Shown here: positions 51,871 through 59,664 of the stretch, one piece after another
How positions within the stretch are numbered: position 1 is the stretch's first letter
How the letters are laid out: each line of letters begins with the position of its first letter
Assembly: GCA_030603365.1 (NCBI GenBank)
Contig: JAUVXV010000002.1
Span: forward strand, 384,001 to 448,000
Direction of reading: 5' to 3'
Origin: Candidatus Heimdallarchaeota archaeon
GTDB taxonomy: Archaea; Asgardarchaeota; Heimdallarchaeia; Heimdallarchaeales; Heimdallarchaeaceae
Length of the DNA stretch: 64,000 nucleotides
Translations under genes and position numbers: made by a program
The notes under the pieces: generated by a model
Databases searched by the model: none
The model's input: the letters and a program-made list of their open reading frames with translations, nothing else
Told to the model about the DNA's origin: nothing

Positions 51871-52749
51871 TCATCTTAGAAATTTATAATGGGTATCTAA
51901 GCATATTCCTATACACCCTGGACCTGTATGTGTAACAATCGTCATTCCGAGTTCATCTATGGACACATTAAAATCTTTAGGTTGGATTACATCTTCTATG
52001 TGTTTCTTTAACATGTTAGCAGATTCTTCATTTTTCGCATGCATTATGTATGCATTGAATTTTTCTGGTCTTCCAGTTTTTTCATAGACAGAATTAAAGG
52101 ATTCTATTACAGCATTTTTGTGCCCTCTAACTGTTTTTACAACTTCCATTTTTCCTGAGATGAAGTTAATAATAGGTTTCATGTCAGCAAGTTTAGCAAT
52201 CCAATATTTTGACTTACTCAATCTACCTCCTCTATGTAAATAGATTAAGTCAGCAACTGTAAAACCTACTTCAAGTTTATTTCGATATTCATCAAGTTTA
52301 ACCATTATTTCTTCAGGTGATAGGTCCTCTTGCGCTAATTCAGAAGCCATAATTGCAAGTATTCCTATACCAAATGTAGCTAATTGCGAATCATATATGT
52401 AAACTTTAGCAGCATCTTCTACTTTTTTCTCGTACATCCTTTTTGCATTAATAGCAGTATTATAAGATCCAGATATTCCCGAAGAAATTACAATGTTAAG
52501 TACTTCATCGGCTTCTTTTCCTAATTGTTCAAAAAGTTCATACTGGTGATGAAGTGTCGGATTAGCAGTTTGAGGATATTCTTTTGATGCATAAAATTTC
52601 TCATAGAACTGCTCTAAGGTTATATCAACACCTTCATAGTAGATGTCGTCACCAAATCTAATTACAGTAGGTACAAGAGAAAGGTCGTATTTTTTTACCA
52701 TTTCAGGTGTAAGATCAGCTGCACTATCAGTCATTATTTTTACTGTCAT
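51871..52749 (-). CDS. DegV/FakB fatty-acid-binding protein
   Basis: TDSAADL, PQTANP, ISSGISGSY, YLHRGGRL, KPI, THTGPG. Confidence 0.93.
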   Translation of the reverse strand: MTVKIMTDSAADLTPEMVKKYDLSLVPTVIRFGDDIYYEGVDITLEQFYEKFYASKEYPQTANPTLHHQYELFEQLGKEADEVLNIVISSGISGSYNTAINAKRMYEKKVEDAAKVYIYDSQLATFGIGILAIMASELAQEDLSPEEIMVKLDEYRNKLEVGFTVADLIYLHRGGRLSKSKYWIAKLADMKPIINFISGKMEVVKTVRGHKNAVIESFNSVYEKTGRPEKFNAYIMHAKNEESANMLKKHIEDVIQPKDFNVSIDELGMTIVTHTGPGCIGICLDTHYKFLR

Positions 52750-52806
52750 CTTTGAAACCTAAGGGAAAAGAAAAAAAGAGGAATTTAAACTTTGCTTGTA
52801 AAAAAG

Positions 52807-53694
52807 TTACAATTCCACATTTCGAGTCATAATAATAACTATAGTTCCAGGACCTGTGTGAGAAGTAATGACACCACCTATATCGTATATCTCACCGATG
52901 TTTATCTCTGGGTATTTCTCCTTTATCTTCTTTGCATAAGCTTCTGTTTCAGTTCTAAAAGCAGCTTGAGTGAAATGCACTGTAAGATTGCTCAAATCAT
53001 CTTCAATATCATTTAGTTGCATTTCTAATATAGTATCAATTGCTTTATCTAAACCTGTTACACTTTTTACAACCTCAACTTTTCCGTCTACGAGGCTTAA
53101 TATAGGTATTTTAGATAGAAGAGATCCTAGATAGTATTTAGCCCTACTTAAACGTCCACCATCAAAGAGCCATCTTAAATCAGAAACAGTGAAATAGAAA
53201 GAGTAATCCTTTTCTCTCCATTCATCTAGCTTTTTGACAATTTCCTCTGCTTTCAAACCTTGTTTTACAAAATTAGTGGCTTTGATCACAATTAAACCGA
53301 AGGGAGTACTTGTTGATCTACTATCATATACGAAGATTTTAGCTCCATCAGGATTGGATTTTTCATACATTTTCTTTGCCATTCTAGCATTATTTACTGC
53401 CCCACTTATATCACTAGAAAGATGCATGGAAATTATCTGATCGTATTTATCTCCATAAGTTTCATATGCCTTTAACAAATCAGCTTGTGTTGATTGAGAG
53501 GTAGTAGGATGTTCAGTAGTTTTAGATAATTTCTCATAAAATTCTGAAGTTTTGAGATTTTCTAATTCTTTATACTCTTCTACACCAAACATAATTTGCA
53601 TGGGAACCCATTGAACGTCGTATTTATCATATAGTGTTACGTCATTAGGAAAATTCAAATCTGCACTTGTATCACAAATAATCTTAATAGTCAT
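52807..53694 (-). CDS. DegV/FakB fatty-acid-binding protein
   Basis: DTSADL, PTTSQ, LSSDISG, GGRL, SHTGPG. Confidence 0.93.
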   Translation of the reverse strand: MTIKIICDTSADLNFPNDVTLYDKYDVQWVPMQIMFGVEEYKELENLKTSEFYEKLSKTTEHPTTSQSTQADLLKAYETYGDKYDQIISMHLSSDISGAVNNARMAKKMYEKSNPDGAKIFVYDSRSTSTPFGLIVIKATNFVKQGLKAEEIVKKLDEWREKDYSFYFTVSDLRWLFDGGRLSRAKYYLGSLLSKIPILSLVDGKVEVVKSVTGLDKAIDTILEMQLNDIEDDLSNLTVHFTQAAFRTETEAYAKKIKEKYPEINIGEIYDIGGVITSHTGPGTIVIIMTRNVEL

Positions 53695-56471: not shown

Positions 56472-57308
56472 CTAAATAAATGCTACACTAGCATATTCCT
56501 TTCCAAGCACATAATAGGAAATGATAGATTGCTTAGTTTCAGTTTTTGGAACTTTTCTGAATCGTCTGATAATATCTTTAGTATTTTTAGTATACTTAGA
56601 ACTTGATGAGTAAAAAATACTCTCTACTTCCTTTGTTTTACTAACGATGTTAATCCTATGGTTTGCTTCTTTGAATAGATTGTGAGCTTTTCTATCTTGA
56701 GAAATATTGGTCCATTGAGTATGAAAATAATGGTATAGATTATGGTTTGTAAAAGAAAATGGAAATGTTTTCTGAGTGTTTACTTTCCCTTTTCCTTCTT
56801 TTACTAAATTGTCATTCTCTGTTATTGTATAGGCACTAATGCGCTTATTCAATTCAATTGCTTTCTTCCTAATTTCGTTAATGTTTTTTGCGTCAGGAAT
56901 GAACTTTACTAACTCTGCTGTGAAGAGTCCAGATGCAGGACCAATGGTTGGTGAATCAACTAAATCAATCGTAATACCAGAAACCATTTTCTTTGCTAAA
57001 AGTGCATGTTCATAAACCGAAGGAGTGAAGAGTGAAGAGTGTATACTGATCAAGGAGTCATATTCTTCAGCAAGGAAAGTGTAGAGTTCTACAAATTCTT
57101 TTATGTTTGGAGCGAAAATATTTGCTTTTTTATCTTGATTTACAATCGACATTAATCTTCCTGTGTTCAAGCTGTGAGTATGCTCTCTTTCAGAATAAAT
57201 CTGTCCTTTAGAATCTTCTATTGAATAACCTACTGGGAAAATTTGCTCTTCTTTGTATAGTTCCAATGGTATCTCTCTGGAGCTATCTATTACAATTGCT
57301 TGTTTCAT
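56472..57308 (-). CDS. Degenerate DegV-like protein
   Basis: 'IVIDSS..IP', 'YDSLISIHSS', 'A.LAK', 'LVDS'; lacks SG, GGR and HxGP motifs. Confidence 0.7.
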   Translation of the reverse strand: MKQAIVIDSSREIPLELYKEEQIFPVGYSIEDSKGQIYSEREHTHSLNTGRLMSIVNQDKKANIFAPNIKEFVELYTFLAEEYDSLISIHSSLFTPSVYEHALLAKKMVSGITIDLVDSPTIGPASGLFTAELVKFIPDAKNINEIRKKAIELNKRISAYTITENDNLVKEGKGKVNTQKTFPFSFTNHNLYHYFHTQWTNISQDRKAHNLFKEANHRINIVSKTKEVESIFYSSSSKYTKNTKDIIRRFRKVPKTETKQSIISYYVLGKEYASVAFI

Positions 57309-57349
57309 AGTAACAGTCTATACTCACTTGGTGTTTTGATAAATCTTTC

Positions 57350-57610
57350 TTAATCACTGATTTCGTTTTCAGATTCCTCTTGTTGCCTCTGTTTTACAAA
57401 TTCTCTATAATCATCCAATGACACTTCTATTGCTATAGTTCCAGACCAACCACATTCTTCATTTTTACAAGAATGTTTGGCCATACCAAAAACAGCTGCT
57501 AAATAATTCGTTGGATAAAAACAAACTGGACAAACAGATACAACTTCCTTTATAGAACGTTTTTTAATTGAAGGAATAGGGAAGTTTTTATCCGACTTGT
57601 TTTTAGGAAT
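57350..57610 (-). CDS. Small zinc-ribbon protein (86 aa) with ATT start codon
   Basis: Not in ORF track. AGGTGA, 5-nt spacer, then ATT; PKNKSDKNFPIPSIKKRSIKEVVSVCPVCFYPTNYLAAVFGMAKHSCKNEECGWSGTIAIEVSLDDYREFVKQRQQEESENEISD*. Confidence 0.75.
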   Translation of the reverse strand: MPKNKSDKNFPIPSIKKRSIKEVVSVCPVCFYPTNYLAAVFGMAKHSCKNEECGWSGTIAIEVSLDDYREFVKQRQQEESENEISD

Positions 57611-57625
57611 TTAGTTCACCTTGTT

Positions 57626-57943
57626 TTAGAATTGTACTTCAATATTATTTGATGGAAAACCAAAGTCTTCAAGAATTGATTTAATCTTAAATCTATGATC
57701 TCCTTGAAGTTCAATTCTACCCTCTTTTTGAGTTCCACCACAAGCAAGCTTAGATTTCAGTTTCTTTGCTAATCCACCGAGATCTACTTCATTAGGATCA
57801 ATTCCAGTTACAAGAGTATACTTTTTACCGTACCTTCTTTTTTCCATGAAAACTCTAATAATCTGTTCTTCTTTCGCAATTTCCTCGCAGACGCATAGGT
57901 CTTGAGGAAGACCACATACCATACATAATTCGTCTTCTAGCAC
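57626..57943 (-). CDS. sui1: Translation initiation factor aIF1/SUI1
   Basis: '[19 protein letters not shown]', 'RRYGK', '[10 protein letters not shown]', 'IELQGDH'; GTG start. Confidence 0.96.
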
Positions 57944-58044
57944 ATCAATAAGAAACGTGAAAGGTTATTTATATTTTTTCATCTAAACTTTTAATTAAAC
58001 TAACAAGGAAATTATTAAAATAGAAGAACAAAATCTTAGGTTTA

Positions 58045-59664
58045 ATGACTATTCTAATCGTAGACGCTCTTGCAGCTAATGAAGGACGTAGAAAGTTCTC
58101 TCGAGATGCAATAGGAGTAGGTCCACGATTATTAGCAGGGATTTGTGAAAAAAATAATAAAGATGCAAAAATCGTTAGAGTAGAGGATATTTTAGAGAAC
58201 AATGACTTCTTCAACCAAACAGATTTTGAGGTTTTTTTAATAAGTGGAATGAGTGTTGACAAAATAGCTGTTAAAAGAGTAATCAAGCATATTTACAGAT
58301 ATTCATCAAAATCTAGGGTAATTTTAGGAGGTCCAATAGTTTCAGACATAGCTATTGTGAAAGAAATGGATGTTTTAGCAGGGGTTGTAGGTGAAGGAGA
58401 ATCCGTTTTAGAAGATTTAATCAGAAGCGATTTTTCTTTTCAATCTTTTGAAGATAATCATGCCAAGCAATATGAACTAAATAGATTACAAGACATTTGG
58501 TTGATTAAACAAAACACACTAAGTACAGCTTCCATTTTTGATAAATATCCTGCTTCTACAGATCGAATTACTGATTATCCAGATTTTTGGTTTTCGAAAG
58601 TTTATGTTGAAATCACAAGAGGTTGTTCCAATCATTTTAGAGGAGAAATTGTCAAAACAGAAGGAGGTTGCAGTGATTGTGGAAACTGTGAAGATCCTGA
58701 TTCAGTAGTTACAGGAGATTGTCCTGAAGACATTCCTCCAGGTTGTGGATTCTGCTCAGTACCTGCTACATTTGGTGCTCCAAGAAGTAAATCAAAGAAT
58801 CTAATATTAAATGAAGTTGAGGAACTTTTCAAAAAAGGAGTTCGAAGAATAATCCTTTCTTCACCTGGATTTTTTGATTATTATAGAGGAAATAATGAAG
58901 TTTCAATCTTTTCTCCTACAATACCAGCTGCCAATTTAACAATTATATCCGAGTTGCTTGAGGAACTCGTAAGATTGAGAGATCAACAGGAAGAAATCTG
59001 TAGTATTTCTATTGAAAATGTTAAACCTTCTCTTGTTACAGAGTCTTTAGCTAAGATGTTGGGAAAATATCTTCCAGGTACGGCCATAAGTATAGGATGC
59101 GAAACTTTTGATACCAAACACAGCTCAGCAATAGGAAGACCAGCTTCATCAAATCAAGCATTAGAAGCAGCTAAGTTGTTTAAGAATGAAGGTCTAGATA
59201 CGCAAATATATTTGATTCACTCTTTACCAGGTGAAACAGTAAAGTCATTAGAGATTACTAGAAAAGTGATTAAGGAAGATTTGAAAGATTTTGTTGAAAA
59301 AATTACTGTTTACAAGTATCTTCCATTACCTAATTCTCCATTTACAATTACTAACTCTAAACAACCTATAGTGAGACATTTCTTAAAAGAAAAACGAGAA
59401 GAATTAAAGAAGAATATTATTGAATTTAATAAGAATAAGAAGAGAGATTTAATTGGTAAAAAACTTGACTTAATAGTTGCTGAAGAAGATTCTCAACGTC
59501 AAAACAATTACTTTGCTTATCCAATATTTAGTGGTCCAGCTGTGAGTGTTTATTCAGAAGAGAATATTTTAAAGCAAACAGTTTCTGCTGAGATTACAGA
59601 GGTGTTATCTGATAGACTAGTAAAGGGAAAAATAGTTCGAATTTTCAAACAAAGAGGTAATTAA
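58045..59664 (+). CDS. B12-binding radical SAM protein with C-terminal TRAM-like domain
   Basis: 'VILGGP', 'VGEGE', 'VEITRGC...GCGFC', 'IGCE', 'LPGET', C-terminal beta-rich segment. Confidence 0.85.
   Translation: MTILIVDALAANEGRRKFSRDAIGVGPRLLAGICEKNNKDAKIVRVEDILENNDFFNQTDFEVFLISGMSVDKIAVKRVIKHIYRYSSKSRVILGGPIVSDIAIVKEMDVLAGVVGEGESVLEDLIRSDFSFQSFEDNHAKQYELNRLQDIWLIKQNTLSTASIFDKYPASTDRITDYPDFWFSKVYVEITRGCSNHFRGEIVKTEGGCSDCGNCEDPDSVVTGDCPEDIPPGCGFCSVPATFGAPRSKSKNLILNEVEELFKKGVRRIILSSPGFFDYYRGNNEVSIFSPTIPAANLTIISELLEELVRLRDQQEEICSISIENVKPSLVTESLAKMLGKYLPGTAISIGCETFDTKHSSAIGRPASSNQALEAAKLFKNEGLDTQIYLIHSLPGETVKSLEITRKVIKEDLKDFVEKITVYKYLPLPNSPFTITNSKQPIVRHFLKEKREELKKNIIEFNKNKKRDLIGKKLDLIVAEEDSQRQNNYFAYPIFSGPAVSVYSEENILKQTVSAEITEVLSDRLVKGKIVRIFKQRGN

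Follow-up and report, generated by a model that had tools for sequence, protein, structure and literature searches.

A probable AUU start on a small zinc-ribbon gene behind sui1 in Heimdallarchaeaceae, and a class of Shine-Dalgarno-led near-cognate starts

The sui1 locus and its zinc-ribbon neighbour

The window, i.e. the whole stretch of 64,000 nucleotides that was analysed, comes from a Candidatus Heimdallarchaeota archaeon. On its minus strand lies sui1 (57626..57943), the sole, single-copy PF01253 gene of the genome (E 4.5e-21), which encodes aIF1, a protein of 105 aa with an N-terminal zinc knuckle; it begins at the GTG at 57943, as the initial annotation had it, and ends at the TAA at 57628-57626. 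A TATA-box-like element (57966..57973, minus strand), with an A-rich BRE-like run upstream of it, stands 22 nt before this GTG and is kept at all loci of the source genome's genus (g1 below); genome-wide, TATA-to-ATG distances peak at 21-24 nt. From the position of the box we infer that the sui1 mRNA is leaderless or nearly leaderless. Two bases ahead of the GTG stands an ATG in another frame; it was considered as a conserved feature and rejected, relatives having ATG, TTG or CTG there. In genera g4 and g5 (L024, L026, L290) an out-of-frame ATG lies four bases upstream of the sui1 ATG and overlaps it.

Behind sui1, also on the minus strand, is an ORF for a C4 zinc-ribbon protein of 86 aa (57350..57610, stop at 57352-57350), hereafter the zinc gene. 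Because its stop-to-stop frame covers 57350-57610 exactly, an in-frame TAA (57613-57611) directly precedes the ATT codon at 57608..57610. There is no ATG, GTG or TTG among the 26 codons preceding the first Cys (residue 27), and the first canonical start codon in the ORF is the ATG at codon 43, so the intact ribbon needs a non-canonical start. The 15-nt spacer between the sui1 TAA and the ATT holds a Shine-Dalgarno (SD) sequence, AGGTGA (57616..57621, minus strand), whose complement is found at the 3' end of the 16S rRNA of this very genome. Six nt separate its GGTG core from the ATT, and an SD-to-start spacing of 5-7 nt is the mode for ATG genes in this genome. Between the SD and the ATT the minus strand reads ACTAA (57615-57611), and a start-stop triplet, GTG-AAC-TAA (57611..57619, minus strand), overlaps the SD in the frame of the zinc gene. 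The initial annotation had described the layout from the sui1 stop through AGGTGA and TAA to ATT, the need for a non-canonical start ahead of the first CxxC, and the triplet; on rereading the minus strand the layout was identical and the other two stood as well. The public gene call on the source contig (P0019, 44 aa) is a cut-down version; public records have the protein as fragments of 44 and 63 aa, or as products begun at the GTG of the SD.

Further downstream on the minus strand is a DegV-like gene (56472..57308; PF02645, E 4.2e-21), which starts at ATG at all loci read. A promoter-like box, TTTATC(A/T)A (57336..57343, minus strand), precedes it and is present past the zinc-gene stop in most loci of the family, which suggests that sui1 and the zinc gene form a two-gene unit. 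Divergent from sui1 is a B12-binding radical SAM gene (58045..59664, plus strand), whose relatives start at ATG or GTG; as a control for GTG use, this neighbour has GTG in 10 and ATG in 9 copies in g1. The window has three DegV-like genes within 6 kb (51871-53694 and 56472-57308), surrounding an ArsA/Get3-like ATPase gene and a TatD-like gene, both named by eye. RNA structure over the sui1-zinc junction was unremarkable (z -0.22), Rfam comparison at the locus gave no match, and a sigma-70 promoter scan, using a model not suited to archaea, stayed at chance level.

The zinc protein consists of a variable charged N-terminal tail, a basic patch, a CPxC...CxNxxCxWxG ribbon and a C-terminal helix, with C27, P28, C30, C48, C53, W55, G57, E62, V63 and Y68 invariant in the orthologue alignment. 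In the structure model (pLDDT 79.6) the charged tail is disordered, the C4 ribbon consists of four strands (23-26, 33-37, 45-48 and 61-64) and the C-terminal helix is present; the two conserved Cys pairs sit on beta hairpins, as in a C4 zinc ribbon, and zinc binding is predicted. For this protein and ten distant homologues Pfam returned nothing above cut-off; one distant homologue, P0031, has an extra C-terminal zinc ribbon. With the zinc protein as query, nothing in the PDB reached E 0.001 in Foldseek, which does not show a new fold, and a wide VIA structure search peaked at Z 3.3; the structure searches linked its fold to no translation regulator. An Atlas feature search brought up unnamed clusters only. 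Among predicted models the nearest (TM 0.58) come from Thorarchaeota and other archaea, in clusters without a name. A complex prediction for aIF1 with the zinc protein scored 0.01, which counts neither for nor against interaction. At most, the protein may be a small nucleic-acid- or protein-binding accessory factor.

Conservation of the zinc gene and of its start

Orthologues of the zinc gene were found in 28 of 30 other Heimdallarchaeaceae genomes. Over ten close pairs, pN/pS is 0.46 from the ATT to the first Cys and 0.25 thereafter; the former value indicates that the segment supplied only by the non-canonical start is also under selection. Conservation shows that the ORF is a genuine gene under selection, encoding a small protein of Heimdallarchaeia. 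All 24 orthologues with a 5' end, from g1 and one further Heimdallarchaeaceae genus (g2), have GGTG-N6-AT(T/A), with 19 ATT, 5 ATA and 0 ATG; the GGTG is invariant, the codons flanking the ATW vary freely, and on a four-gene tree the third base of the start shows several changes from T to A or back and none to G. Two independent metagenome contigs from a close relative have ATT at the same place; a search for related loci on genome contigs gave no match, nor did the exact DNA pattern searched in metagenome contigs. The start proposed by the initial annotation therefore appears real: comparison of the orthologues argues strongly that in two genera the zinc gene starts at AUU or AUA, as second cistron behind sui1.

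The TAA directly before the ATT is found in 4 of the 24 orthologues, on at least two separate branches, and excludes the GTG of the SD as a start in those four genomes; elsewhere the codon is TAC, TTT, TAT, TCA, ACT or TCT. Like stops occur in RNase HII and cofE, and four other genes of the genome have an in-frame stop between GTG and a near-cognate codon. The GTG-AAC-TAA triplet, described by the initial annotation as a start-stop element, is not conserved and is, as judged from these alignments, incidental, a by-product of having the SD in frame at the given spacing.

The order radical SAM (divergent), sui1, zinc gene and DegV-like gene holds in most of the family, and the zinc gene lies behind sui1 in every genome of family f1 with context, and also in family f2. 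The distance from the sui1 stop to the zinc start is 13-15 nt in 23 genomes, where every relative frame occurs; one further genome has 77 nt and still ATT. The three frames rule out a sui1-zinc fusion; a read-through or frameshift fusion with aIF1 was rejected on these grounds, and in the source genome the in-frame TAA stands in its way. Termination-reinitiation is efficient with overlaps or very short gaps and is nearly abolished at ~20 nt (accessible part of PMC10666635), so the zinc gene is more likely to be initiated de novo.

Beyond g1 and g2 the picture changes. In g3, g4, g5 and f2 the zinc gene is still behind sui1, further off, lacks an intact SD and starts at ATG; homologues in f3, f5 and f6 start at ATG or TTG, far from sui1 and beside a panB-like or M20 peptidase gene. 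Such unlinked, canonical-start homologues indicate that the role of the zinc protein needs neither linkage to aIF1 nor a weak start. The idea that orthologues would share the weak start and the link to sui1 was thus borne out in g1 and g2, where there is no ATG and all copies are behind sui1, and not outside them, other genera having ATG and other families being unlinked. In one g4 genome (L027:230-1440, G004:C7) an IS200/IS605-like insertion, with a tnpB remnant recognized by eye, splits sui1 from the zinc gene.

The start of sui1 itself is GTG in 23/23 g1 genomes and in g3, and ATG in g2, g4, g5, f2, f3, f5, f6 and f7; it does not covary with that of the zinc gene (sui1/zinc ATG/ATA in g2, GTG/ATG in g3). 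Such a GUG could possibly be self-limiting. In several f4 sui1 genes (L280-L292, L308) the stretch ahead of the zinc knuckle lacks a canonical start, and the apparent start is ATA or ATT, in one case TTG. The aIF1A gene (G000:C14:235926-236120, minus strand, L067), divergent to a unit of aIF2-beta, a small ORF and NMD3, has TTG at every g1 locus read, GTG in g2 and g5, and TTG in g4 (read at L067 and the NMD3 loci L068-L095 and L168-L178). The genes for aIF2 alpha, beta and gamma and for aIF5B have ATG starts in this genome.

Near-cognate starts across the genome

We surveyed the genome for genes without a canonical start at SD distance, counting ATT, ATA, ATC and CTG as near-cognate. These codons occur exactly 6 nt behind GGTG in 34 of 124 cases, against 35 of 501 at 3, 9, 12 and 15 nt (odds ratio 5.0, p 4e-9); under a stricter rule, 28 of 879 SD-led starts (3.2%) are near-cognate. 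Genome-wide there is no such excess behind TATA boxes, so that the class depends on the SD. Its members are functionally mixed, including NMD3, RNase HII, CofE, V-ATPase E, acetate-CoA ligase, TldD, an Lrp regulator, an E2-like protein and a VPS28-domain protein. The E2-like protein and a UQ_con + VPS28 protein (G000:C17:26753-27271 and G000:C1:329166-330557) are ubiquitin-system candidates for an ATT start. GTG and TTG together make up ~23% of SD-led and ~23% of TATA-led starts, with GTG at ~15% of the latter. In g1 the start class is mostly stable gene by gene (58 genes), which makes conservation alone weaker evidence of regulation than it appears.

Five genes of the class, none of them linked to sui1, were followed through their relatives. 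An intact GGTG at 6 nt goes with a near-cognate start in 75 cases and with ATG in 6, other SDs with a near-cognate start in 2 and with ATG in 33; SD and start thus agree (intact GGTG with near-cognate, eroded SD with ATG) in 108/116 cases, where the choice of the five for a near-cognate start in this genome inflates one cell of the table and the counts from kin are not independent. Joint switches of SD and start occurred on ~2 branches each in RNase HII, V-ATPase E and a nucleotidyltransferase, ~6 in all. The zinc gene fits the covariation: its copies that lack the intact SD (g3, g4, g5 and f2) all start at ATG. NMD3 (G000:C14:237171-238265; L030:672-1766), which lies two genes behind aIF2-beta, has AUU or AUA genus-wide, with GGTG-N6-ATT/ATA in 23/24 genus genomes, three of them ambiguous through an ATG at the preceding codon, and with ATG in g4 and g5. 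Judged on these alignments, its start is about as conserved as that of the zinc gene, without a sui1 link.

RNase HII, V-ATPase E, the nucleotidyltransferase and cofE (loci L097-L126, L227-L245, L247-L271 and L197-L225) alternate between an intact SD with ATT, ATA or ATC and an eroded SD with ATG; the start position is GTT in two nucleotidyltransferase copies and TTT in one RNase HII copy. An MBF1-like gene (L127-L155) varies among CTG, TTG and ATG across the family, and within g1 CTG pairs with 6-nt spacing and TTG mostly with 7-nt. In the literature searched, with incomplete coverage, no account of AUH starts as a class spanning a Heimdallarchaeia genome turned up, and we regard this SD-dependent, lineage-wide class, with its SD-start covariation and no prior description found, as the more interesting result.

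The weak start and its parallels

We propose, with a probability of about 0.7, that the intact, exactly spaced SD licenses the weak start of the zinc gene and sets a modest output. A GGUG SD exactly 6 nt upstream would pre-position the 30S subunit and so let the initiator tRNA settle on a near-cognate codon with reduced efficiency; a gene of the class would move to AUG mostly when its SD erodes. A strong SD with a weak codon could then be an alternative to a weak SD with AUG, giving modest, stable output, and would be a habit common to the lineage, in ~3% of SD-led genes. That this habit is lineage-wide and switches with the SD makes it most likely that the weak codon sets such an output, and its spread over ~3% of SD-led genes argues for lineage-wide output limitation and not for a dedicated sensor. 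In archaea the SD does pre-position the initiation complex, and aIF1 destabilises non-AUG complexes (PMC6237735, PMC7531240); in an E. coli reporter AUU output was 6-8 times below that of AUG or GUG (PMC3592434). As aIF1 disfavours non-AUG complexes, output of the zinc gene may fall when aIF1 rises, a plausible response on known biochemistry, and one that would be passive and common to the whole class instead of a dedicated circuit. Two observations sit less well with SD-licensed output limitation. Within its class the zinc gene stands at the end of least variation (24/24, against 3/19 to 24/25), and with SD and codon both fixed in it something specific is conserved; and its position directly behind aIF1 would be a ~3% coincidence if random, a figure calculated post hoc.

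The main rival, partly compatible with this reading, makes the class-wide response to aIF1 the reason why selection keeps the class: near-cognate genes, aIF1 with its GTG and aIF1A with its TTG would rise together when start checking relaxes, the zinc gene being one output that co-transcribed aIF1 damps in an incoherent feed-forward arrangement. Destabilisation of non-AUG complexes by aIF1 in S. solfataricus (as cited in PMC6237735) and the rise, on loss of KsgA in H. volcanii and E. coli, of proteins with non-AUG annotated starts (PMC7897474) speak for it, as do the GTG of sui1 in 23/23 g1 genomes, the non-ATG starts of aIF1A (TTG in g1, non-ATG in the other genera read) and the place of NMD3, the other near-invariant AUU gene, two genes behind aIF2-beta. 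Yet the members are functionally mixed and most become ATG in some branches, aIF2 alpha, beta and gamma and aIF5B are at ATG, and GTG and TTG are common and mostly fixed gene by gene; we consider selection for such a joint response unlikely. Less likely still, and frankly speculative, is the larger version in which the weak-start genes (aIF1 at GUG, aIF1A at UUG, the zinc gene and NMD3 at AUU, and ~25 others) would be a translational regulon read by aIF1 stringency, with an AUU reporter or effector inside the sui1 operon itself, and a prokaryote-style forerunner of the eukaryotic eIF1/eIF5 stringency circuits.

The initial annotation had favoured a sensor or feedback specific to the sui1 operon, the zinc protein being made when aIF1 is scarce and acting on aIF1 level or activity. 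Linkage to sui1 throughout f1 (where context is available) and in f2, the invariant near-cognate start in g1 and g2, and a basic patch and zinc ribbon that could bind nucleic acid are what one would expect of it. The start, however, tracks SD integrity and is ATG in g3, g4, g5 and f2 despite the adjacent sui1, homologues in f3, f5 and f6 are unlinked (M20 peptidase or panB-like neighbour), sui1 and zinc starts do not covary, the mini-ORF is not conserved, and the structure searches tied the fold of the zinc protein to no translation regulator. Nor is the layout peculiar to the operon: ~27 other genes share it (~28 in all), and NMD3 is unlinked and about as invariant. A dedicated sensor thus seems quite improbable.

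More improbable still is the assumption of gene callers that most relatives truly start at the GTG of the SD, copies with TAA being broken or truncated. This GTG is in frame and open in 20/24 orthologues, and public calls give products of 87-92 aa, but the ATW is invariant while the two intervening codons vary freely, with TAA in at least two branches, and only 20 of 101 Ile columns are invariant in control proteins. No second SD lies upstream, selection persists in pairs including the TAA copies, and like stops are found in essential-type genes, e.g. RNase HII. A sequencing or assembly error hiding a true ATG can be practically dismissed, given purifying selection on the zinc frame, ATT or ATA in 23 other genomes and the two independent metagenome contigs.

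Gene callers limited to ATG, GTG and TTG would cut short or mis-start ~3% of SD-led genes in Heimdallarchaeaceae, and the SD-start covariation offers natural leader pairs to probe how an SD offsets aIF1 proofreading. Eukaryotic initiation lost the SD and became AUG-strict, and Asgards are close prokaryotic relatives of eukaryotes; if it is true that the class responds jointly to aIF1, archaea would have their own counterpart to the start-stringency control of eukaryotes.

Several known systems bear comparison. (i) E. coli infC (IF3) autorepresses through an AUU start (Butler 1986, cited in PMC3592434) and eIF1 autoregulates through a poor start context (Ivanov 2010, cited in PMC6237735). As far as these secondary citations go, the likeness is a weak start within the transcription unit of a start-fidelity factor; here, however, the AUU is on aIF1's neighbour and not on the factor, aIF1 itself having GUG on a probably leaderless mRNA, with AUG in three of five genera. 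Nor is the weak start exceptional in the genome, with ~28 SD-led near-cognate starts. (ii) With termination-reinitiation, as the accessible text of PMC10666635 presents it, the locus shares a second cistron close after the first stop and an SD just past that stop; it differs in the gap, 13-15 nt with every frame represented and once 77 nt, which is not a conserved short distance. (iii) Small archaeal ribbons of the CPxCG or TFIIB-like type resemble the zinc protein in size (<100 aa) and in having two Cys pairs, four Cys in all, carried by beta hairpins, but the latter has the CPxC...CxNxxCxWxG pattern and a C-terminal helix, and no curated family reaches cut-off. (iv) In archaea, near-cognate starts are among putative initiation sites of Haloferax (PMC7261190), and the Kariarchaeaceae tubulin AtubA, likewise an Asgard gene called too short, has an inferred ATT start that was placed by RBS and protein structure; that was a single gene in a methods section, whereas a genome-wide class and a conservation analysis are given here (PMC13394414).

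The closest parallels are E. coli pcnB, where an AUU start limits expression (Binns and Masters 2002, cited in PMC3592434), and Enterococcus faecalis ebpA, where an ATT start attenuates it (PMC4447247). On the accessible parts of these sources, in both, as proposed for the zinc gene, an AUU behind an SD limits output and the gene is not itself a fidelity factor. Like them, the zinc gene has no canonical start for the intact product and a near-cognate codon at SD distance, conserved in 24/24 g1 and g2 orthologues. As those sources describe them, pcnB and ebpA are single bacterial genes, whereas the habit here extends to ~3% of SD-led genes, with AUU, AUA, AUC and CUG at one spacing and, unlike in pcnB and ebpA, with SD-start covariation across species; the effect on output is for the present case predicted from sequence. 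The zinc gene probably belongs to a known kind, that of AUU-limited genes, and its start is a useful correction to annotation.
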